Shown here: piece after piece, positions 1 through 21,450 of the stretch
Position numbering within the stretch: the stretch's first letter is position 1
Layout of the letters: each line of letters begins with the position of its first letter
Sequence record: SRR20825006_365
Length of the DNA stretch: 38,292 nucleotides
Reading direction: 5' to 3' (one strand)
Notes under the pieces: model-generated
The model's input: the letters and a program-made list of their open reading frames with translations, nothing else
The model's database searches: none
Told to the model about the DNA's origin: nothing
Position numbers and translations under genes: made by a program

Positions 1-3000
1 GCGCGGGGTCAGGCTTCCGGCTGTGGTGCCTGCGACGGTCAATCCGATGCAGTAGAACTTGCCCGCCGTCGCCGCGAGCGGCTGTGCAATGGCATCCGCC
101 GTGCCCGTCGTATGAGTGGCCACGCCGCCTGCAACGGCCCAGCCTGCGTCCAGCGTCCATGCGGCCGCGTTGTCCATCGACCCGCCCGCAATCAGGTTTT
201 CGCGCGTGGTGTCACCGAGCGTGGTCGAATAGCTGGACTGCGGGGTCACAGCGAGCGGCACGCCCACGGCATCGGTCTCGCGGTCCAATGTGTCAGAGGT
301 CGAGCGGTAGACCTGAAGCGCCGTGGTCGCCGTATCGTCGCCGGTCGCGATCTGGATCAACGCGCCGCCCAAGAGCGTGGTGACAGTGATCCCGGCCTCG
401 TCAAGGGCGGCGGGGATGTCCGCATCCTGCTCGCCGACGATGATCGTCACGGTCACAGTAAAGGGTCCATAAACGCCCGTCGCACTGATCCCGCGTGCCC
501 GGATTTCGACGGTGTCGCCAGTGGCATAGCCCTCGATGTCACCACCGCCATTCGCAGCCGTGATCAAGAGCGTGGTCCAGTCCGTGGTCTCGGCAATCCG
601 ATGGTCGATCTCGAACGTGGCCGTCGGCACAGAGCCGGACCCCGGCGCAATCAGATAGGTGATCAGGTTCTCGGTGCCTGTGCCGGACAGACCGCTGGTG
701 ACGGAAACAAAGCGCGGTGCGGAGGGTTGCAGCACGTTGTCGTCCAGCTCGGCACCAACACGGCTCGACCAGGCGGGAATCTCGGTCGCCGCCAGTTCGA
801 TGTCGATCTCCGGTGCGGCGGCGACCATGCTGAAAATCGAGCAGCCATCGGTGGTGTTTTCAACATTGCGGACGATGTGATGCAGCGCCGTGGCGGTGGA
901 TTTGCCAAACTGTACGAGATCACCGGCGTGATAGATGCCATCCACGAATGCCGCACCACGCGGCAATGGACCAGCGCCAACAAGTGTCAGGACCGAGGTC
1001 TCGCCCGGCACTGTCTCTACAATCCTGACGACAGACTGACCGATGACGTCGGCCTCATCCTCGAACCACCGAAACCGGATCGCATAGGTCTCGCCTGCCT
1101 CCATCACCACTGCAGTGTCCAGCTCAACCAATGCGCCAAAGACCTCTTTCACGCGGCCCGTCTGGTGATCGCGCATCAGAGTGTAATGATTGGTCATCAC
1201 ATCGTCACCGCGCGTGGCGACCCGGAACATGCCGTCTTGGGTCGCTTTAAAGGTGTCGGGGCGGTAGATCGCTTCGAGCTGGCGGCGACGCCCCTCACGC
1301 CAGACCTCATCGGCGTAGACTTTGCCGGATTGCGGCAACTCTTCGGTGATTTCGATGTCACCCTCATAGCCCGGCCACCGGATTTCGCGCTGGGTTTCTT
1401 TGTAGTCATTTCCGGCATCAAGAAAGGTCACGATAGAGGCGTGCGGCGGTTTGAAATAGGACCGCTCAGTGGAAAATCCCCACGAATTTCGCGGGCTGAT
1501 ATGGTCGACAATCAGCGCATCGTGAGAGGGCCGGTCGATGACAACGCCATATCTGCGACCATCATGGCGCGGCGTGGCGCGACCTGCAGCCGCGATCTCG
1601 GTCAGGACATCGCGCAGGGTGGAGCTGGTCTCAGACAGCGCCTTGTTGAAGGTCAGGCCATTGAGCGTACAGAATTCATGCCACTCCTGCAAAAGCTCCA
1701 GATCAAGCTGGGCGTCAGATCGCGGCTCGGGCAGGGCCGGGTCTTGCAACACATGGCGATAGAGGCTTGCGGGGTTTTCGGTGACGCGGGTGATCCAAGT
1801 GCCTGAGGCGGCATCCCAATCGGGGCAAATCCGGGTCACAAGGCAGTTGAAATCGTCCAGCGCGCCCGAGAGTTGATGCGTCGCCTTGATCCGCAGCGCC
1901 ACCAGTGCAAGCGGGCGCGGGAAGGCGAGCGGATATTCAGGGCGCAGGGTCTGCAGCGCGGCCCAGGTGGTGCGCTGTTGGACCTTTGAGCTGGTGTTCT
2001 CATCCGTCAGCATCGTGCACCGCACCTGCCAGCGCGCGCGGGACGGAAAAGACCAGGTGTGTTGGCGATAGAAGCCTTCGGTCTTTTTGGCCTTCACAAC
2101 AAGCTCCTCGACCAACTGCCATTCGGTCGCCTCGACCAAACGCTGTTCAATGCGGATATTGACGCTTTGATCGTGCTTGTCGCCGTCGTCGTCATAGCGC
2201 ACGAGACCGGCAGGCCATGCGAAGATGATAGAGGCTCCCGAGGCGTCCGCGCCGGTTGTGCGCACCACTGGCGTCTCAACGCCCGGCGCGTCATCACCGC
2301 TGCTTAATCCATCGCCAAACCCCGGCCACAGTCCGAGATCCAAAGTTGGCCAATCCTCCTCGCTCTCAATCTGGATGATCTCACCTGCATCATCGCGGGG
2401 GCGCGGCTTGGTCAGTTCCACACCGACCTGCTCCTCGACCACCTGTTGCGGATAGAGGCTGACGGGCAGCTCGCCCTCGATGCCGTAGCGGACCTCTGTG
2501 TCGACCTCGTCATATTCAGACAGGCTGGTCTCGCCGATGCGCATGTCCTCAATCGCAATCTGACCTTCGCCGATCACAAAGAGTACGCGGATGTATTGAT
2601 CATCGCCGACGATCTCGGTGTAGGGAAGTGCTGCGTAGGGTGGGGCGACGCGCATTTTGCCCAGGACAATGGGCACCGCACCATTTGGCACAGCGCGGTT
2701 TTTGAGCCCCGAAATCGAATAGGTGTTGCGCGTCTCATCATCAGACGCCGAAGGCGGCGGGATCAGGGCGTTGATCAAGAGGTTGCCAAGCAGTGTGACG
2801 CCCACACCGATCAGGCCAGATGCGACGGCAAACCCAACTGTTCCGGCGGTGAACCCGAGACCTGCCGCCCAAAATTGACCAAGGGCGACGGCGGCCACGG
2901 ACACCACGATTGACAAGATCGAGCGCAGCGCGTTCTTGCCGGGGACAATGCGGATCACGACTTGCACGCCCGGATGCGGACGAATGCGCAGCCTATACTC

Positions 3001-3201
3001 AGGCGGAACCACATCAATGCCCTTGGGCGTCACCAAGGCCACACGTACAAGCATCAGCTCAGCGGCAGTGGCCCCCGGCAGCGCCATGCGCACGATCTCA
3101 TCCACCGTCAACCCATAGGGCACGTCGAGCTTGATCCGCTCGGCGTCAGAGTTCCAATTCGGAGCCGCAAGGACCGGGATATGGGAGAGGGGGCGGCTCA
3201 T
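1..3201 (-). CDS. Tail tip / host-specificity protein (lambda I+J-like), truncated by the window edge
   Basis: ATG at 3201 overlaps the stop of the upstream NlpC/P60 gene (ATGA). Manual translation MSRPLSHIPVLAAP...hydrophobic Gly-rich segment...NRAVPNGAVPIVLGKMRVAPPYAALPYTEIVGDDQY resembles tail-tip proteins. Absent from the ORF track, consistent with a frame that has no stop inside the window. Confidence 0.85.
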   Translation of the reverse strand, partial: MSRPLSHIPVLAAPNWNSDAERIKLDVPYGLTVDEIVRMALPGATAAELMLVRVALVTPKGIDVVPPEYRLRIRPHPGVQVVIRIVPGKNALRSILSIVVSVAAVALGQFWAAGLGFTAGTVGFAVASGLIGVGVTLLGNLLINALIPPPSASDDETRNTYSISGLKNRAVPNGAVPIVLGKMRVAPPYAALPYTEIVGDDQYIRVLFVIGEGQIAIEDMRIGETSLSEYDEVDTEVRYGIEGELPVSLYPQQVVEEQVGVELTKPRPRDDAGEIIQIESEEDWPTLDLGLWPGFGDGLSSGDDAPGVETPVVRTTGADASGASIIFAWPAGLVRYDDDGDKHDQSVNIRIEQRLVEATEWQLVEELVVKAKKTEGFYRQHTWSFPSRARWQVRCTMLTDENTSSKVQQRTTWAALQTLRPEYPLAFPRPLALVALRIKATHQLSGALDDFNCLVTRICPDWDAASGTWITRVTENPASLYRHVLQDPALPEPRSDAQLDLELLQEWHEFCTLNGLTFNKALSETSSTLRDVLTEIAAAGRATPRHDGRRYGVVIDRPSHDALIVDHISPRNSWGFSTERSYFKPPHASIVTFLDAGNDYKETQREIRWPGYEGDIEITEELPQSGKVYADEVWREGRRRQLEAIYRPDTFKATQDGMFRVATRGDDVMTNHYTLMRDHQTGRVKEVFGALVELDTAVVMEAGETYAIRFRWFEDEADVIGQSVVRIVETVPGETSVLTLVGAGPLPRGAAFVDGIYHAGDLVQFGKSTATALHHIVRNVENTTDGCSIFSMVAAAPEIDIELAATEIPAWSSRVGAELDDNVLQPSAPRFVSVTSGLSGTGTENLITYLIAPGSGSVPTATFEIDHRIAETTDWTTLLITAANGGGDIEGYATGDTVEIRARGISATGVYGPFTVTVTIIVGEQDADIPAALDEAGITVTTLLGGALIQIATGDDTATTALQVYRSTSDTLDRETDAVGVPLAVTPQSSYSTTLGDTTRENLIAGGSMDNAAAWTLDAGWAVAGGVATHTTGTADAIAQPLAATAGKFYCIGLTVAGTTAGSLTPR

Positions 3202-3665
3202 CTCGACGCCTCCGAGATGATTTGAACAGGGCGTTCAACGCGGTGTTTAACGGCCTGTTCACCCGCCATATTTTGGTGCCGCCAATGGCCCTCAAAGCGG
3301 TGGCTCCACGTGCCACGATCATAGCGCTCGATCTTGCTTTGATCCTGACCAAACATGTGGATCATGACACCGTGACGCACAACGATCCCAACATGAGAAG
3401 AAAAGCGCCCGAGTTTGAAAACGGCAATGTCAAAGGCGATGGCCGGACCACTGACCGGCAGCCAAAGCGGGCTGGATTTCTCGCCTTCGATGATTGCGGA
3501 GACCTCGCCGCACTCATCCGGTGAGCTGTAGCTGAGATAGTCCGGCAGGGTGATGCCAAGCTCCTCCTGATAGAGGATGCAGGCCAGACCCCAACAATCC
3601 GCGCCACCGCGGCTGCGACCGTGGTCCTGTTGCGGGATGCCGATGAATTTGTTTGACCAGCTCAT
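3198..3665 (-). CDS. NlpC/P60 (C40) tail-associated peptidase
   Basis: GADCWGL catalytic Cys motif and HVGIVV..H; located before the tail tip gene. Confidence 0.9.
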   Translation of the reverse strand: MSWSNKFIGIPQQDHGRSRGGADCWGLACILYQEELGITLPDYLSYSSPDECGEVSAIIEGEKSSPLWLPVSGPAIAFDIAVFKLGRFSSHVGIVVRHGVMIHMFGQDQSKIERYDRGTWSHRFEGHWRHQNMAGEQAVKHRVERPVQIISEASR

Positions 3666-4064
3666 GTGCCCAAACCTTCTATGGTCAAGGCCGTTGCTCT
3701 GATAAAAGAATTCTGGACGATTCTTTTCAGACGGAGACAGATTGTTATGGAAATTGAACCACTCGAGTCAGGTGCGATCCTTCCCATTGAAGAGATCGAC
3801 GACGAAAGCGAGACACGTGTTTTCTTAGTATCATACTTCATCTCTTGCACCCTCTTAGGCCCCGAGCAACAAGAGTATGTAAATCAAATCGAAGTTGGCG
3901 TTCCGGTCCGCTCGGAGGACCATAACGCGTCATACCGGGAGATTGAGGATGCTGGTGCTCAAGCGCTTCCAGCCTTTTTTCGAGATCTTGCAGACGCGAT
4001 TGAACAGGATCTTGCGCGGGTAGATCGCAAGCGTGCAATCCGCAAAGCCGCGTCACCCGATTGA
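3666..4064 (+). CDS. Hypothetical acidic protein, counter-oriented insert in the tail operon (start may be ATG 3681 or 3747)
   Basis: 132-aa ORF with plausible composition in an AT-richer patch; no recognisable motif. Confidence 0.55.
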   Translation: MPKPSMVKAVALIKEFWTILFRRRQIVMEIEPLESGAILPIEEIDDESETRVFLVSYFISCTLLGPEQQEYVNQIEVGVPVRSEDHNASYREIEDAGAQALPAFFRDLADAIEQDLARVDRKRAIRKAASPD

Positions 4065-13321: not shown

Positions 13322-13351
13322 AAAAAACCCCGCCAAGGTGGGCGGGGTGTT
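13322..13351 (-). promoter_or_regulatory. Late-operon regulatory palindrome, copy 1 (upstream of the protease gene)
   Basis: 29/30 identical to 24402-24431; ACCCCGCC-N6-GGCGGGGT. Confidence 0.75.
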
Positions 13352-13578
13352 GGTTCAGATCACGGTGCCAGACTGCCGCATCGTAGGCGTTTGGTCAATG
13401 TGTCTGTGGTGAGGCGGTGCAATTTTAGGGGAAGACGGGCAGCAGTTGCCAGCCGGTGTGAACCGTATCTGCGCGTCCTTTGTTAGGGGCAACTCTGTCT
13501 TGGTTTGTTTTATGGAATAGTCTGCCCACCGAGCTTTTCTTTTATGAGTTGTTAACCAAGATCGTGAAAGAGTGATCT

Positions 13579-13770
13579 ATGGTTTATAAATTCCGCATTT
13601 GTGAAAAAGATGATCTTGCCGACACAGCTCAAGGCTGGGTCGTGGCAATGTCAGAGATCGAAGCCCGCTCAATTCTCGGGAGGAACTCACACCTTCACTT
13701 GGTAGGGCAGAATTCAGAGCTGGCTATACCGAATAGAACCGTATTTGTTACGCATGGGCAGCTTCACTAA
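13579..13770 (+). CDS. Small hypothetical protein (63 aa), convergent with the RT
   Basis: ATG with purine-rich upstream GAAAGAG; plausible composition; AT-rich upstream region. Confidence 0.6.
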   Translation: MVYKFRICEKDDLADTAQGWVVAMSEIEARSILGRNSHLHLVGQNSELAIPNRTVFVTHGQLH

Positions 13771-13858
13771 CGGCCCTTTGCCGCCATTCACAACACGTGC
13801 GATGAAGGTCCGCAGCCGCTCGATTTCGGACGTTAATGCTCGCCGCAAAGAAAACATT

Positions 13859-15460
13859 TCAGTATTCGAGGAGGTCAGACAAGTCATCGCTCGACCCGTT
13901 GAGGTCTTTATTCCTCCTATCAATCCCATGATTCTTTGCGTGCAACCTGGCTGCTTTGCAAGCCTTCACGAAGCTTGGCAGTTGTACTTCGGGTAGTGGC
14001 TCGACTCCATCTTTTCCCTCTTTCTTTACCCAAGCGTTCATATCAAGCCAGCTGCCGTCAATTACTTGAGCATTATTAGGAGTGAGGCCAGAGGCGTAGG
14101 TTACACCTAGCGCATGACGGATTAAGGTCTCACGATGCTTCATTGCACGCCTGATATTGTTTACCATCCATCCGTCAAGTCGAACGAACGGGGAAAGATC
14201 ATCTACCAAAGCATAGTGAGCCATGATGCCATGCATTCTTTTGACTTTCTCTTCCCGATAGAGGCAATCGCAAATATTCTTTTCGGAATTTCCTCCGTAT
14301 ATCGTCTTCCGAAGTTCACTAATCAAACCAAGTAAATCCCAGTCGAACTGAGGCGTGGAAACGCTCACTCTGGCAGGGTTGAAGCTCCCGTTCCTAATGT
14401 ACTGTATGAGGTAAAGGTTTACCAAGCGCCCGATCTTCAACTTAATCTTCGCTTCAACTTTGTCAGATATTGTTGTGCCGCCGGGTGTAAACCTGTACCC
14501 TAGAAAATCAATTTCGCCTGTGGTTCTAATCTCTTGCTCAGTTTCGGAGAACGCAGAAATACCGGGCGATTTATTACGGTTTATCTCAAGAGCGTTCTTA
14601 TGAGCGTGATCATAAAAAGCCTGTTCAACTTGTAGTGCTTGTTCATAGTTGTTTGTTAGTGCAACCACATCATCAGCGTACCGGACAAATTTTCCGGATT
14701 TAAGCTGCAGGCTCTTGTCCAAGTCATGAAGTGCTAAGTTAGCCAAGATCAAAGATACACTGGACCCCTGTGGTGTGCCGACTGAACGCTTTTCTATTAT
14801 CTTCTGAGTGGCACCGCTGGCTCTTTTCACGATAGTCTTCTCGGACTCGTGCGACATAAAGGCCTTAATAATTCGACGTTCGGTGGATGTAATCCGCAGA
14901 GGAGATCTGTTTTCCGAATTTGCGCCAATCAGATCGTCCAGAAACTTATGGGGGATTTTGTCAAAAAATTTCTTAAAATCTACCTGGATAGCGAAAGTTT
15001 TCTCGTGCGGATTGGTGTCATTAAGTGCCTTGATGGCGTCGAAAATGTCTCTATCAGGCAGATAAGCATAACTGTCCGGTGAGAATGCTCGAAGGTTCCG
15101 CTTTACAATGGAACGATATACCAACTTGGCGACCACATTATCTGGAATTGAGAAAGAGGTAAGTGGGCGAGTGCCTCCGTCTTTCTTTGGAATGTCAAAC
15201 GTTCGGGCCAGTTCTGGCTTGTAAGTTCCCTTCTGTATCCTAGCCCAGATTACTTTTGAAATGACGTTACAATTCTTGGTGCAAAAATATGGATCGAAGT
15301 GATCATTAGTTCTCGTCGGAGGGGTAACCGGGAAAGATGTTGAGCCAGTCCGCTTTCTAATCCTTTCGCGGTGTTCTTCGAATTTCTTATTCTTGGCAAC
15401 CATCTTTGCTATCATGCACCGAGAGGTGTACTTTATCTCTTTTTTAATGGCTTCTTGCAA
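13859..15460 (-). CDS. Reverse transcriptase, stand-alone, probably UG/DRT (defence-associated) type
   Basis: RT motifs: IPKKDGGTRPL, SYAY, VDFKKFFDKIPH, GTPQGSSVS..LAN, RYADD, L.IN..KS, IDFLGY. TTG start with GAGGA RBS; AT-richer than the flanking phage genes. Confidence 0.95.
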   Translation of the reverse strand: MQEAIKKEIKYTSRCMIAKMVAKNKKFEEHRERIRKRTGSTSFPVTPPTRTNDHFDPYFCTKNCNVISKVIWARIQKGTYKPELARTFDIPKKDGGTRPLTSFSIPDNVVAKLVYRSIVKRNLRAFSPDSYAYLPDRDIFDAIKALNDTNPHEKTFAIQVDFKKFFDKIPHKFLDDLIGANSENRSPLRITSTERRIIKAFMSHESEKTIVKRASGATQKIIEKRSVGTPQGSSVSLILANLALHDLDKSLQLKSGKFVRYADDVVALTNNYEQALQVEQAFYDHAHKNALEINRNKSPGISAFSETEQEIRTTGEIDFLGYRFTPGGTTISDKVEAKIKLKIGRLVNLYLIQYIRNGSFNPARVSVSTPQFDWDLLGLISELRKTIYGGNSEKNICDCLYREEKVKRMHGIMAHYALVDDLSPFVRLDGWMVNNIRRAMKHRETLIRHALGVTYASGLTPNNAQVIDGSWLDMNAWVKKEGKDGVEPLPEVQLPSFVKACKAARLHAKNHGIDRRNKDLNGSSDDLSDLLEY

Positions 15461-15474
15461 AATTCTTTCCTCAG

Positions 15475-15632
15475 AAAACCCTTTCGGGCGCCGGCACCCT
15501 CAAAGAAATCACCGCAATTGCGTCCACCCTCTAGGCGAGAGCGTCCTCGGGAGAGACCGCCACCATTAAGCTGGAAGCAGCAGTCGTCTGCCACCTGGTG
15601 CCGACTAGACCAAACAGCCTTGAGGGTTTGTC
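15475..15632 (-). ncRNA. Putative RT-associated structured ncRNA (boundaries approximate; may extend to ~15815)
   Basis: Closing stem 15618-15627/15496-15505, internal hairpins, and a terminal GAAA-tetraloop hairpin directly upstream of the RT. Confidence 0.6.
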
Positions 15633-15830
15633 GCATAGGCTGAGCAAATTCGTCAACAGGGTTAAAGCTATCGGTTTCTGTATGCCTTCACAGTCGCGGA
15701 AGGAGCCTTTCTTGAGCGCAGGCAATACGCTCAGCTCAGAGGAAGTGGTGGGACGTCCCCGACCCTTCGTGTTGCTGCCGTTCGTCTCCACTGCACCGAA
15801 CGACTGCTTCCCGCCCGATGCACACATTTA

Positions 15831-17110: not shown

Positions 17111-18749
17111 CGCGGCTTTCCTCTTCGACAGTCAGACGCCCACCTGCAAAGCTCGATGTCAGGGCTTGTGCCATCATGATCTCGAAGCCGCTGGTATCTA
17201 CATCGCCAAATCCGGCGAGCATCATGGTGCGAAACTCTTCAAGCGACTGTGCCTGCGCCATCATCGCTTCAATCTGGCCCATCATGCGCGCGATTTGAGG
17301 TCGGGCCTCATTTTGTAAACGGTCGACGAGAGGAGCCAAATCCTGCCCCGCAGAAAAATCGCCCTGTGAGGCCTGTAAAGCCTCTTGAGCGGCAACCATG
17401 CCCGGATCGGCCTTGGGGTGTTTAACGGGCGCTAAAAACCGTTTAATTTTTGAAGCGGGGGGCGTGCCATCCCCCGCATCTGCGCCGGGCTCGGAATTTT
17501 GGGCCGTTTGACCCAAAATCTCATCGCCGTCTTTGGGTTTTTCCCACCCGAACTTGCTGTAAACCTGCTCGGCCTTTACCGGCAAACCAATCTTGACCAG
17601 GTTGCCTAAGATTTCGGAGGCGGCCTTGAGGTCTTCTTGCTCAGGGCGCGCGATCACGAGGGTCGGATAGGCGGTCTGCGGCCCAAATTCCAAATCCATC
17701 CACGGGCGGATCAGATCGCGGTTGAGGATCGCCGCCAAAGCGCCGGCATCGGCGCGTTCGATGTCCTCTTGAACCTGACGGTGTTCTTTGCCTGAGCCAA
17801 GACCGCCGACCACGGCATCCGTTGTGCCGGTCTGACCCAGCACAGCTTTTGAGATTTGCTGGTCAATGTGATCAACCCGCTTCAGGTAGAGATCTCCGGA
17901 TGAGTTTGTATTTTTGGCCTCGACAAAATCGATGGTCATGCTGTCAGGGATGATGACGGCGCAATCGCCTGCAATATTGGCGACCGCGTTGAACAGTGTG
18001 TCTTTGTCAGGCTCCGATGCGCCAGCCCCCCATTTGCCGATCCGCAAGGGCTGGCCGTAAGTCTGGGTGAAGATCGCCCAGTCGCGTTGGGTGTAGGCTT
18101 TAAACAGCCAGCCCCATGTGGCGACCCGCGCGAGACCGGAGCGCAGCGGCAAGCCCGATTTCGCCTTCACCTGGGCAAAGATGAATTTGAACGCATCAAG
18201 TGGCGTTTCTTGACCGTGATCATCCAACTGCATTGGGGTTTTGAGATCATGCCGATTGAAGCGGAACCAACGCGGGTCGCGGTATTCCAAACGGTCAGGA
18301 CGCCATTGCCCCATAGAGGTGTCCCAAATGATCTCCGTGAAGCTGTAGCCTTTGCCGACCGCATCTAGGATGTCGAACAGCTCTTCGACCAATTCACCGC
18401 GCTCAAGCCATTCTTGCACCATTTCCGATTTTTTGACGTCTTCCGGCTTGTCTGAGGCGGCTTTGACGGTGATTTCGATCTGGCTGACAGAGCGTTTGCG
18501 GGTGCCGATGACGCCCAGATAATGCGGATCGCGCTCTTCAACGACTTCGGCCAGTTCCAGAAACTGTACCGGGTCACCTTGATCCGCTGCGCGCAAGATA
18601 TGTGCCAGCCGCGCGGGGTCCAACCCATCGGCGGGTGTACCTGAGATCGGGCTGCGAACCCCGCCAATGGTGGCGGCGGCCACTTCTTTGGTCAGCATAC
18701 GGCGCTCTATCGGGCGGCCAAAACGGTCGAGCAACTGTGGTCGTGTCAT
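17103..18749 (-). CDS. Portal protein (Mu gp29, DUF935)
   Basis: EERDPHY, LDAVGKGYS..EIIW, DWAIF...YGQPLRIGK, QISKAVLGQT; ATG 18749 overlaps the methylase stop. Confidence 0.93.
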   Translation of the reverse strand: MTRPQLLDRFGRPIERRMLTKEVAAATIGGVRSPISGTPADGLDPARLAHILRAADQGDPVQFLELAEVVEERDPHYLGVIGTRKRSVSQIEITVKAASDKPEDVKKSEMVQEWLERGELVEELFDILDAVGKGYSFTEIIWDTSMGQWRPDRLEYRDPRWFRFNRHDLKTPMQLDDHGQETPLDAFKFIFAQVKAKSGLPLRSGLARVATWGWLFKAYTQRDWAIFTQTYGQPLRIGKWGAGASEPDKDTLFNAVANIAGDCAVIIPDSMTIDFVEAKNTNSSGDLYLKRVDHIDQQISKAVLGQTGTTDAVVGGLGSGKEHRQVQEDIERADAGALAAILNRDLIRPWMDLEFGPQTAYPTLVIARPEQEDLKAASEILGNLVKIGLPVKAEQVYSKFGWEKPKDGDEILGQTAQNSEPGADAGDGTPPASKIKRFLAPVKHPKADPGMVAAQEALQASQGDFSAGQDLAPLVDRLQNEARPQIARMMGQIEAMMAQAQSLEEFRTMMLAGFGDVDTSGFEIMMAQALTSSFAGGRLTVEEESRDA

Positions 18750-19573
18750 GTGGGCACCCCGTGAGGTTCGAGTGGGAAATTGGAAATCAGCAGCTCGCCC
18801 GCGTCTTTGGCCTTGTCGCCGCCCGCCAGCGTGTAGGTGACGCGCACCGGGACAATATCGGCCCAATCAAACAGGCTGCGGATCTCGGGGACGTCATTAA
18901 TTGAGAGAATAAACTGGCCTTTAATGCCCCGTAAAATGCGGGCCAGATTGGCAAAGTCATCGCGGCTGAAGGCATCTTTGCCATAATCGGTCTCGCTGCC
19001 GAAATATGGCGGGTCGAGATAGAACAGCGTCGAGGTCCGATCCACGCGCGCAATGAACGCACCGTAGCCAAGGCACATCACGGTAACGCCAGACAATCGG
19101 TCGTGCAGGGCCTCGAGATCGGTCTCTAGGGTGGTCAGGTTGAAACGGGCAGGGCGCTCCGTGGATATCCCAAAGGTCCGTCGATTTACGATGCCACCAA
19201 AGGCAACCCGCTGGAGGTATAAGAACCGCGCCGCGCGTTGCAGGTCGGTCAGAGTTTCGGGGGTGACTTTCATCAGACGTTCAAAGCCTGCCTGTGTCGT
19301 GATCTGAAACCGCAGCAGGTCCAGAAAGGCGACGTAGTGCTCCTGCAAGATGCGGAACAGATTGTAGACGTCTTGGCTGTAGTCGTTGATGAACTCAGAG
19401 CGCGGTTTGCGTTTGCGGCGCAAGAAGATGCCGCCCATGCCCACAAACGGTTCGGCATAGGTGATGTGGTCATGCGCATCGATGATGGCACAGAGCCGTT
19501 TGGCAAGGTTGCGTTTGCCGCCGATATAGGGCGCGACGGGCTTGGACGTGGTGGCTTCGGTTTTCTTTGACAT
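18746..19573 (-). CDS. DNA adenine methyltransferase (Dam/D12 class); alternative in-frame start at 19738
   Basis: PYIGGK, YAEPFVGMGG, IND, FYLDPPY. Confidence 0.93.
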   Translation of the reverse strand: MSKKTEATTSKPVAPYIGGKRNLAKRLCAIIDAHDHITYAEPFVGMGGIFLRRKRKPRSEFINDYSQDVYNLFRILQEHYVAFLDLLRFQITTQAGFERLMKVTPETLTDLQRAARFLYLQRVAFGGIVNRRTFGISTERPARFNLTTLETDLEALHDRLSGVTVMCLGYGAFIARVDRTSTLFYLDPPYFGSETDYGKDAFSRDDFANLARILRGIKGQFILSINDVPEIRSLFDWADIVPVRVTYTLAGGDKAKDAGELLISNFPLEPHGVPT

Positions 19574-19602
19574 GAGTGTGCGACTCGCTTTAGCCAGTTC
19601 TT

Positions 19603-19704
19603 TCCCGCAAGGGACAGAGGCGGCCATAAGCGTAGGCTGGTCGGCGGGGCCTGTTCCAATAGATCCCCGTGTTCGAAACTGGTGAGACAGTTTCTGACCC
19701 TCTG
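19603..19704 (+). ncRNA. Putative structured RNA (cloverleaf) antisense to the methylase leader
   Basis: UCCC-GCAA-GGGA hairpin, closing stem CAGAGG/CCUCUG, three internal stems. Confidence 0.45.
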
Positions 19705-19734
19705 CCCATTTTTCGGTATGTTCTGGGCTTTGGA

Positions 19735-21450
19735 TCATTGAATACCTCCCCGAATGCGTGCGCCGAGTGGGCCTGAGAAGGGTCCACGTCTGTGCCGGTC
19801 GCCCTCGTGGTTGGGGAGCATGTTCATCTGGCCTTCGGATTGTGGGTGTTGGACCTGAGGGTATTGGGCCTGAGGGTATTGGGCCTGTGTTGGCACGGCG
19901 CGGTAGCCGTATTCGGACCACCGCATCCGGCTCGCAAAATGCGCCAGGGCCAATCCAATGGCGAAGTCGCCGTGGCGTTTTTTGTCTTTCTCGCCTTCGC
20001 GGGTGGCAGGCACGCGGGGGATGCCGCGCAACAGCTTCACAACCCGCAAATCTGAGGCGTGATCATCGAATTTGATCAGCTGCAACGTGCCGTCTTCAAA
20101 GGCCGATTTCAGCGGTGGCATGTTGATGCGGTACCAGTCCTCAGAGAACTTGATGGCCCAAACCAGACCTGAGCCATCATCTGTTTCGCGCAGGCCGAAC
20201 TTACGGCCCATGTCTTCGGCCACAGTCCAGCCCATGCCAGTGGCATCAAAGGCGGCACCGACCAGCCGACCGCGCAAATGCTCCATGATCATGCCCACGG
20301 CTTTTTTCTGCTCGTCACCGGGGACACCGCGCATCTCAAGGCAGAGCGCCTCAGTGCGGTGTAAATTCGGTGCAATCGCCAACACTGGCAGCACCGACAG
20401 ATCGGCCACACGGGCAAAGTCAAAGCCAATCGCATAGCGCAGGTCCATGTCGAGCTTGCCAAGTTCTTCTTCGATCTGCTCATAGAACGGGGCCATTAAG
20501 ATGGCCTGCTCAAGTGCCGAGCGCTGCAAATAGTCTTTCGGCAAGTCCAGCGTGATCACCGGCTTTTCCACAGTCATGCGCGCCTCAATCAGCGGGGCCG
20601 CCAGCCACGATCCTGTGGACAGACTGGGGACGCAGAACAGCTCTTGATCGGCGCTGTCGCCATAGAATTTGATGATGCCTTGTCGCCAAGCCGCCTCGGC
20701 CTCAACAGACCAGTTGAGGCCTTTGATCAGACAGATACGCTCATAAAGGCCGTCCGTGATGGCTTGGTCCAGATCGATCCGCACATGTTGGCCGGGCATT
20801 CGCCCTGCCAGAATATCTTGGATGTTGGTGTTAAAAGTGTTGTCGACACCAAAATGCGTGGAGCAAACGACGACCTGACCGCCCCACATCAAGAACGCCA
20901 TAGCCGCCTCGATGAGCGTGTCGAGATTATCGACAAACGCGGCCTCGTCAATGATCACCACGCCTTGTTTGCCGCGCAGGCCACGTGGGGCCGAACTGAG
21001 GGCCATGATTTCAAAGCCGGAGGCAAAGCGAATGCGGAAGGCTTGAATGGCCTTATCGCCCTCAGTGTCGCCTTCTTCAAACAGGCATTCTTCTTCGGCC
21101 ATCGCTGCAGATGAAAAAGCGCGCGCCCACATGGCGCAGGCATCCACAAATTCGCGGGTCATCTCTTTGCTGTAGGAGATATACATCACATCCATGCCGC
21201 CTGCGCCTTTCTGGCGACCGGCGCGGTGGACGGCATAGGCCGCCAACCCCCATGTCAGGCCAATGCGGCGGGATTTTTCAATATACAGCACCTGGGTGCT
21301 GGTACTGTTCAGCAGCCCTACGACCCCTTGTTGATAGGGCAAGAGGGCTTTGGTCTGACCAACTTTGGCAATGACGTCTGGAATCGCGTCCATCGCCTCA
21401 AGGCGCATGGCCTCCCATTCCTCTTGTGTCAGGATCGCGCCATCTGCCAT
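19735..21450 (-). CDS. terL: Terminase large subunit (Mu gp28-like)
   Basis: LLPYQ, EKSRRIGLTW (Walker A-like), VIIDEAAF (Walker B), IGFDFAR..D, FDATGMG, HGD. Confidence 0.95.
   Translation of the reverse strand: MADGAILTQEEWEAMRLEAMDAIPDVIAKVGQTKALLPYQQGVVGLLNSTSTQVLYIEKSRRIGLTWGLAAYAVHRAGRQKGAGGMDVMYISYSKEMTREFVDACAMWARAFSSAAMAEEECLFEEGDTEGDKAIQAFRIRFASGFEIMALSSAPRGLRGKQGVVIIDEAAFVDNLDTLIEAAMAFLMWGGQVVVCSTHFGVDNTFNTNIQDILAGRMPGQHVRIDLDQAITDGLYERICLIKGLNWSVEAEAAWRQGIIKFYGDSADQELFCVPSLSTGSWLAAPLIEARMTVEKPVITLDLPKDYLQRSALEQAILMAPFYEQIEEELGKLDMDLRYAIGFDFARVADLSVLPVLAIAPNLHRTEALCLEMRGVPGDEQKKAVGMIMEHLRGRLVGAAFDATGMGWTVAEDMGRKFGLRETDDGSGLVWAIKFSEDWYRINMPPLKSAFEDGTLQLIKFDDHASDLRVVKLLRGIPRVPATREGEKDKKRHGDFAIGLALAHFASRMRWSEYGYRAVPTQAQYPQAQYPQVQHPQSEGQMNMLPNHEGDRHRRGPFSGPLGARIRGGIQ
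19841..19887. repeat. 15-bp tandem repeat (about 3 copies) encoding QAQYP-QAQYP-QVQHP
   Basis: cctgagggtattggg at 19854-19868 and 19869-19883 plus a degenerate copy. Confidence 0.85.

Follow-up and report, generated by a model that had tools for sequence, protein, structure and literature searches.

In the available parts of the published accounts, DRT9 systems couple a reverse transcriptase (RT) to a non-coding RNA (ncRNA) that lies directly upstream of it and is made up of six stem-loops together with a further loop that bears a U-tract (U123-126 in SenDRT9; PMC12483538). According to the same texts, the ncRNA serves as scaffold for a hexameric RT-RNA complex and as template for poly-dA that is kilobases long (PMC12483538, PMC12489045, review PMC13434031), the poly-dA being primed from C-terminal tyrosines, Y496/Y498 in SenDRT9 (PMC12483538, PMC12489045, PMC13434031), and synthesis being unleashed upon phage infection (PMC12483538, PMC13434031). 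The characterised members they name are SenDRT9, PsaDRT9 and E. coli DRT9 (Tang et al. Nature 2025, PMC12483538; EMBO J 2025, PMC12489045), and the published covariance model was built on 201 systems (PMC12483538). The locus considered here lies in a stretch of 38,292 nt from record SRR20825006_365, referred to below as the window, in which the feature under study occupies 15475-15815 on the minus strand, next to an RT gene. The window is judged with high confidence to hold a DRT9 (UG28) anti-phage cassette with its own promoter, a structured ncRNA of ~147 nt (~15621-15475, minus strand) and the RT gene at 15460-13859; the judgement is a joint one and includes the reading of this cassette as a passenger inserted into a Mu-like prophage, with the gpG-like gene on one side and the gpI-like gene on the other. 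What lies beside the RT start is very probably the scaffold/template RNA belonging to this RT, which is non-coding, ~150 nt long and read from the minus strand. Most likely the feature is real and already explained in kind, as a divergent member of the known DRT9 system.

The gene that anchors this assignment is the following.

13859-15460, minus strand: DRT9 reverse transcriptase, 533 aa, TTG start; ribosome-binding site GAGGA at 15472-15468

This RT is a DRT9/UG28 defence reverse transcriptase. The PADLOC Drt9 profile matches it with E 5.3e-139 (462 bits), residues 1-516 falling on profile positions 1-479 of 488. The next PADLOC profiles are far weaker (generic RT model PDLC01136, 5e-39; RT_UG17, 8e-27 and 92 bits; Drt2, 1e-19), and the best retron-type models reach about E 1e-12. 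Pfam reports RVT_1 only, and among solved structures its best relatives are those of DRT9, namely 9ioa, 9iob, 9nlv, 9nlx, 9vku and 9vma (E 6.9e-55). The active-site motif YADD is intact (VRYADDVV), and the N-terminus, MQEAIK, matches the MQNAIK of the family. The protein ends in ...DLLEY, with a single tyrosine rather than two; this residue, Y533, is invariant in 14/14 sequences of alignment A2. In a quick version of an RT tree, for which the tool gave a long-branch warning, the window RT and its closest relative (locus L005, described below) share a long branch beside the alphaproteobacterial clade and apart from the canonical DRT9 clade.

Other kinds of RT were tried and set aside. On the group II intron RT/maturase model TIGR04416 the protein scores 150.8 bits (cut-off 300), over the RT domain only, and Rfam intron families have no match in the window at gathering or E-value thresholds. 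For Drt2, NF041746 reaches 66 bits against a cut-off of 390, and the conserved RNA is ~150 nt long as opposed to ~280 nt in DRT2, whose ncRNA is the template for a concatemeric gene; stop-free frames in the style of DRT2 are present on both strands of the 98-nt enclosed region of the RNA, which is too short for them to mean anything. The retron St85 model scores 55.6 bits against a cut-off of 235, and the NCBIfam Drt3a model is also far below its cut-off.

In 185,579 species genomes the only close relative is L005 (the same locus as L001), from a Rhodobacteraceae metagenome-assembled genome with an RT 87% identical to that of the window, and three scans of genome contigs gave no other locus above 50% RT identity. 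A metagenome scan with generic RT patterns returned mostly group-II-like RTs among the 80 returned, with 8 DRT9 loci, the closest at 47%; a scan of viral contigs gave 5 loci, all of alphaproteobacterial type; phage records held no relatives and plasmids distant RTs only. Proteins P0002 and P0004-P0015 in metagenome assemblies are 50-92% identical to the RT. Four sequencing contig sets, of DNA or unlabelled, were compared, one of which covers the RNA region and is identical to the window there.

The comparison with L001 sets the limits of the cassette. A blastn alignment matches window positions 15692 to 13780 at 81.5% identity over 1946 columns, with no match outside that range, and the L001 cassette is flanked by other genes (a helix-turn-helix protein and unassigned open reading frames, ORFs). 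The common block is thus ~1.9 kb in size.

13780-15692, minus strand: DRT9 cassette (promoter, ncRNA, RT gene and ~80 nt of 3' flank), common to the window and L001

Within the block, the RNA core, 15622-15476, is 89.1% identical between the window and L005 (131/147 columns), while RT codons are 92% identical at positions 1+2 and 65.9% at position 3; therefore the non-coding core is constrained nearly as strongly as the protein. Identity outside the core is 82% over the promoter, 68% for 15692-15656, 40% upstream of 15693 and 72% over the first 79 nt past the RT stop. L005 carries a 32-nt insertion in the RNA (L005 ~1410-1441, aligned to window 15522/15521), so a conserved ORF in the core is ruled out. 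The insertion repeats the preceding UAGGACACUCUC...GGGUGGA module, as in a tandem duplication of one hairpin unit within the ncRNA.

15475-15621, minus strand: candidate DRT9 ncRNA, ~147 nt, with predicted ends

The first-pass annotation of this DNA had proposed a template/scaffold RNA of about 155 nt, or of up to ~340 nt reaching to 15815. A core of ~150 nt agrees with the shorter version, but the longer one is not supported, as similarity to L001 ends at 15692, with 40% identity beyond, and the upstream sequence has no excess stability. The upstream part, 15628-15815, which contains a hairpin and one arm of a long-range match, lies outside the unit common to L001. Its minimum free energy (MFE) has z = 0.03, as has that of the 370-nt spacer overall, for which 44/100 shuffles are equally stable. 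The strand bias that had been read from G-U pairs is borne out by folding of the core, with an MFE of -61.9 kcal/mol on the minus strand against -38.0 kcal/mol on the plus strand (plus-strand z +0.68).

For every 5' boundary tried, the MFE and centroid structures agree on the fold below. Its individual helices are predictions of the folding model.

15607-15620, minus strand: SL1, AGGCU-GUUU-GGUCU (MFE and centroid)
15605-15597 with 15498-15490, minus strand: closing stem P2, 9 bp, GUCGGCACC with GGUGCCGGC (pair probability 0.91-0.92)
15576-15595, minus strand: SL3, GGUGGCAG-ACGA-CUGCUGCU (centroid), the first hairpin of the first-pass annotation
15523-15575, minus strand: SL4 region, an irregular long hairpin of unsettled inner pairing that includes the second hairpin of the first-pass annotation
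15513-15522, minus strand: SL5, CGC-AAUU-GCG (centroid, weak), the third hairpin of the first-pass annotation
15499-15512, minus strand: template candidate, a single strand of 14 nt, GUGAUUUCUUUGAG, unpaired in the centroid and directly 5' of the P2 3' arm
15489-15478, minus strand: SL6-like GNRA hairpin GCCC-GAAA-GGGU, running into UUUU at 15478-15475 (MFE and centroid)

Most of these elements are kept in L005. P2 and the SL6-like hairpin are invariant, and SL1 shows two one-sided changes (G-C to G-U and G-U to G-C) that keep both pairs. Seven of the eight SL3 pairs are unchanged and one G-U has become G.A, while in SL5 2/3 pairs are altered on one side to wobble pairs. The outer pairs of SL4 (UCCA/UGGA and CUU/AGG) are invariant; its inner pairs, in the centroid version and in that of the first-pass annotation alike, are broken at several places, and the 32-nt insertion falls in this region.

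A promoter is placed just upstream of SL1.

15650-15655, minus strand: putative -35 box TTGACG, identified by comparison only
15627-15632, minus strand: putative weak -10 box GACAAA (GAUAAA in L005), after an 18-nt spacer, from reading of the sequence

In 35/49 DRT9 upstream regions a TTGA[CT] motif precedes the first hairpin by 36-39 nt, the distance being 37 nt in both the window and L005; of the remainder, 4/49 have no match and 10/49 give other values, several of which are visible mis-picks of the pattern. On account of this spacing and the putative -10 box, the transcript would start near 15621.

The predicted start bears on how the RNA is organised. All helices listed by the first-pass annotation are present on the minus strand at the positions it gave, including the hairpin CUCU..CGAGG-ACGC-UCUCG..AGAG (15555-15529), the long-range match of 15811-15800 with 15587-15573 (8+4 bp) and a 10-bp stem of ACCCUCAAGG (15627-15618) with CUUUGAGGGU (15505-15496), which contains one G-U. 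The role given to that stem, as the helix that closes the whole structure, is another matter. The 10-bp stem and P2 are mutually exclusive because their 3' arms overlap by 3 nt (15498-15496), and it is P2 that occupies the position of the closing stem in DRT9 RNAs, with a probability of 0.92 as opposed to 0.065-0.079 for the 10-bp stem in the ensemble. The 5' arm of the 10-bp stem moreover falls on the putative -10 box and start site. A larger RNA of up to ~340 nt (15815-15475) that is organised by this stem, for example one produced by read-through from the prophage late operon, is the rival reading: the cassette is co-oriented with the upstream late genes, so that a read-through RNA could hold both arms. 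Forcing the stem costs only 0.8 kcal/mol (-62.8 vs -63.6), 9/10 of its pairs are kept in L005, and it would loosely mimic a helix of the canonical clade that lies immediately 3' of the U-tract and closes the loop of the template. However, the remaining pair has become C.U in L005 and is uncompensated, the stem would bury the U-tract, and the sequence upstream of 15693 that the larger RNA would include is unrelated in L001, and 15815-15628 is no more stable than shuffles. Uninterrupted stems of at least 10 bp with at most one G-U also arise in 26/300 dinucleotide shuffles of the 161-nt core. A larger RNA of this kind is accordingly regarded as very improbable, and the ~147-nt ncRNA closed by P2 is retained.

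The layout of this ncRNA was compared with those of two DRT9 clades. The first is represented by 55 loci of the alphaproteobacterial clade, whose RTs are 37-44% identical to that of the window (L005, at 87%, stands apart), and the second by 80 canonical-clade loci, among them that of Photobacterium sanctipauli DSM 100436, the species from which the published PsaDRT9 comes. The 8 DRT9 loci from the metagenome scan and the 5 from the viral scan were added, the alphaproteobacterial set comprising L006-L067 and L140-L143. In RNAalifold, 24 alphaproteobacterial upstream regions give 35 consensus pairs, 29 of them with compensatory changes. The resulting RNA has a 5' hairpin (GGC...GCC) and a closing stem of 10-12 bp that encloses three hairpins; a conserved strand, CCCU[G/U]ACU[C/U]U, stays unpaired and immediately precedes the 3' arm of this stem. 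The canonical-clade RNA is similar in plan, but its template lies inside a local hairpin loop, CCAAGU-GGUAACUUACUUUU-ACUUGG. In the Photobacterium locus the U4 is found at 125-128 from the predicted start, where the paper has 123-126. The canonical RNA ends in a terminator-like hairpin and a U-run, in agreement with the paper's numbering and with the 3' part that its available text calls 'SL6 and U-rich region' (PMC12483538). Both clades thus have a hairpin on the 5' side, three hairpins enclosed by a closing stem, and a conserved pyrimidine- or U-rich strand just 5' of the 3' arm of that stem. The window RNA is predicted to have this layout as well. MAFFT, which works from sequence alone, places its elements in an order that matches the elements of the alphaproteobacterial family and aligns the 5' arm of P2 with the 5' arm of the alphaproteobacterial closing stem, and SL1 stands in place of the GGC...GCC hairpin.

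Several results weigh against this assignment. Covariance models R1 and R2 (alphaproteobacterial) and R3 (canonical) have no match at the window RNA, even with filters off, and nhmmer profiles of the two DRT9 clades do not match it either. The stability of the core is modest (z = -1.8, with 28/500 shuffles as stable; z = -1.5, with 14/200). Only two sequences of the sub-clade, the window and L005, are at hand, and no pair is changed on both sides; the share of cells paired over these two is alike for the family-like structure (94.6%) and for that of the first-pass annotation (93.3%). A generic promoter scan finds no sigma-70-like site at the putative promoter. The U-run of the window is 3+3 with a C between, followed by G, and is not U4; a local hairpin around the template, as in the canonical clade, is missing.

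The misses by the models lose force on inspection. R1 matched 58/59 loci searched and missed L005 and the window. In cross-clade controls, R2 matched 0/13 canonical loci, the Photobacterium locus included, and R3 matched 0/9 alphaproteobacterial and 6/6 held-out canonical loci; nhmmer profiles gave 0 cross-clade matches. Because the models fail across DRT9 clades too, their miss in the window is weak evidence, and shows the window RNA to be a third sequence type, not anything other than a DRT9 RNA. In the window Rfam gives no match at gathering thresholds and, at E up to 10, four weak matches at chance level. Rfam 15 has no model that matches any compared DRT9 locus, and since the published Photobacterium locus is among those missed, this null is uninformative. 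Of the conservation and covariation among homologues by which the first-pass annotation had proposed to judge the RNA, conservation is found and covariation is not, because the sub-clade offers only two sequences.

The modest z-scores, the want of covariation and the want of model matches would also be expected of a structure that arose by chance folding of a GC-rich spacer, beside an RT that worked without a dedicated RNA, like untemplated Abi-type enzymes. Such a fold would not explain why the core is 89% conserved when silent-like sites are at 66%, nor the strong strand asymmetry of folding, and the RT belongs to a family that the available text describes as ncRNA-using and Class 2 (PMC12489045). 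Chance folding is therefore considered extremely unlikely, and a DRT9 ncRNA remains the preferred explanation.

The candidate template of this ncRNA is the U-rich strand beside the closing stem, GAUUUCUUUGAG, with UUU at 15508-15506, C at 15505 and UUU at 15504-15502. It reads UUUCUUUGA in the window and UUUCUUUUA (CUUUUA) in L005. The same position holds CCCU[G/U]ACU[C/U]U in the alphaproteobacterial family and ACUUACUUUUAC in the canonical clade, the Photobacterium sanctipauli locus included, and CUUUU is invariant in 32/32 aligned canonical sequences. Basal alphaproteobacterial loci have UUUCUU[U/C]U or CUUACUUU, and most of that clade has CU[G/U]ACUCU. Among 46 distinct alphaproteobacterial template regions the longest U-run is at least 4 in 3, exactly 3 in 15 and at most 2 in 28. 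These U-poor templates are at odds with the poly-uridine tract of DRT9, called 'universally conserved' in the available text of two reports (PMC12483538; bioRxiv 10.1101/2025.10.16.682844); how many template uridines DRT9 needs is stated as unknown in that of the former (PMC12483538).

The first-pass annotation had left the templated product unspecified; by homology, protein-primed poly-dA or A-rich DNA would be expected. Its choice of homopolymeric or repeated cDNA as a read-out was apt for an RT of the DRT9 family, since poly-dA is what DRT9 synthesises on the U-tract of such an RNA (PMC12483538). Slippage on the U3-C-U3 of the window may still yield poly-dA; alternatively, the product may be A-rich DNA in which G is interspersed. 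That the window sub-clade, and more clearly the alphaproteobacterial clade, does not write pure poly-dA and makes A-rich heteropolymers or short tandem repeats instead seems rather unlikely; telomerase-like repeat addition, e.g. of d(A3G)-like units from UUUC, could be a route to such a product. If it were so, these enzymes would stand mechanistically between DRT9 and DRT10. The U3-C-U3 strand and the U-poor templates of the neighbouring clade form a natural test set for the number of uridines that DRT9 needs and for whether all of its members make homopolymers.

The position of the structure, which abuts the ribosome-binding site and TTG start, would also suit a cis-acting leader of the RT mRNA that affects translation or stability only and provides no trans-acting scaffold or template. 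No terminator of canonical strength lies between the RNA and the RT gene, the 3' hairpin being one of 4 bp followed by UUUU. On the other hand, the region keeps the family layout with the U-rich strand at the family position, and in every characterised DRT9, as far as the available text of the reports goes, synthesis depends on the upstream RNA, which binds the RT (PMC12483538, PMC12489045). A leader function alone is thus judged quite improbable by comparison with a trans-acting DRT9 ncRNA.

If the DRT9 assignment is right, the cassette promoter would drive, in the lysogen, a transcript that carries both the RNA and the RT. As in the characterised systems, the RNA hairpins would wrap the RT and hold an oligomeric RT-RNA complex together, presenting the U-rich strand UUUCUUU (15508-15502) at the active site to be copied repeatedly, with a C-terminal tyrosine of the RT as the primer. 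Once an infecting phage raises dATP or blocks dATP degradation, the complex might then produce long poly-dA or single-stranded DNA rich in A. On superinfection, this A-rich single-stranded DNA would block either the invading phage or the cell, in the way reported for DRT9 (PMC12483538, PMC13434031).

The cassette sits among the late genes of a Mu-like prophage and has the same orientation as these.

21450-19735, minus strand: terminase large subunit, Mu-like prophage late region
19921-18746, minus strand: ORF for a D12-class N6-adenine DNA methyltransferase, between the terminase and portal genes
18866-17103, minus strand: Mu-type portal
17110-16298, minus strand: Mu F-like minor head protein
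16301-15831, minus strand: virion-morphogenesis / Neck1 protein (gpG-like)
13323-12211, minus strand: Mu-like protease/scaffold (gpI-like), beyond the gap that contains the RT
11761-10868, minus strand: major head protein gpT

The gap between the gpG-like and gpI-like genes consists of a 370-nt spacer, the RT gene (15460-13859) and then ~535 nt. GC content is ~45% in the RT region and ~58% in the flanking prophage genes. In phage Mu the gpG/gpI junction is the boundary of the lys and I late transcription units. Between the cassette and the gpI-like gene, ~455 nt (13324-13779) hold no ORF of more than 71 aa and are not in L001; just ahead of the gpI-like gene, at 13348-13327, is a strong terminator-like hairpin, ACCCCGCC-CACCUU-GGCGGGGU, with a U-run. 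An ATG ORF of 98 aa on the minus strand (15531-15827) straddles the 15692 boundary of the cassette; neither Pfam nor PHROG gives a match for it, and it is probably a chance ORF. The methyltransferase ORF (18746-19921) overlaps both neighbouring ORFs, terminase and portal, as listed, and is probably another passenger gene. A hairpin outside the cassette (UGAGCG/CGCUCA, 15713-15733, minus strand) has no T-run after it on either strand; a metagenome contig (run X10, depth 5.1) differs there in two pairs in a compensatory pattern, with U-A in place of A-U at 15731/15715 and G-U in place of G-C at 15732/15714.

DRT9 cassettes were seen elsewhere too. The IMG/VR contig L140 (RT at 2501-4048) has a typical alphaproteobacterial DRT9 cassette inside an unrelated phage, between a major capsid E / DUF6441 block on one side and a tail-tube gene on the other, and its ncRNA scores identically to those of L010 and L143. 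Since this cassette also sits in a phage structural module, DRT9 recurs as a passenger within such modules. In L203 (Enterobacter sp. MGH 24, 2710-2800) a canonical DRT9 cassette adjoins a tRNA-Sec gene, a classic island integration site.

The analysis assigns a probable function to an otherwise unannotated 370-nt spacer, and by this reading a DRT9 defence module sits ready-made in the prophage, with a block of late genes on either side. There is also a lesson for annotation, in that DRT9 ncRNAs of differing RT sub-clades are missed by each other's covariance models and Rfam is without a model. Because cross-clade models and Rfam miss them, DRT9 ncRNAs need to be located by their position and layout beside the RT.

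Among known systems, DRT2/UG2, retrons and group II introns resemble the window in having an RT with structured RNA upstream, and differ in that the window RT scores far below the cut-offs of their families. DRT10/UG17 comes closer. In the available text of its description it is a Class 2 UG RT with an upstream ncRNA that contains a template loop, is protein-primed and performs telomerase-like tandem-repeat synthesis, and the UUU-C-UUU of the window resembles its A-B-A' template logic (bioRxiv 10.1101/2025.10.16.682844). The window RT, however, reaches 92 bits on RT_UG17 as opposed to 462 on Drt9. No SLATT-like gene, as in DRT10, was found, there being no ORF of at least 100 aa in the 535 nt downstream, where smaller ORFs were not scanned against family libraries.

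The alphaproteobacterial DRT9 clade differs from the window in having no 3' SL6-like hairpin and, for the most part, CCCU[G/U]ACU[C/U]U in the template loop. In other respects it is alike, with RTs about 37-47% identical to that of the window, equal promoter spacing, an equal order of elements, a template strand that is single-stranded in the multiloop, and an RT that ends in ...LFDY, similar to the ...LLEY of the window. Compared with DRT9/UG28 as described, the best-scoring library-representative relatives are 27-35% identical to the window RT (the solved chain itself is without a reported identity), the template is UUUCUUUG in place of the canonical CUUACUUUUAC, no local hairpin encloses it, the 3' hairpin has 4 bp where the canonical one is longer, and the RT has one terminal tyrosine instead of a Y-x-Y pair. 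Set against these differences, the window shares with DRT9/UG28 the RT family, the YADD motif, a C-terminal tyrosine and a candidate upstream ncRNA on the same strand. The predicted RNA layout is likewise shared: one hairpin on the 5' side, three more within a closing stem that has a U-rich template candidate beside it, and a last one on the 3' side followed by a U-run. The U-tract lies ~114-120 nt from the predicted start in the window and 125-128 nt in the Photobacterium locus.

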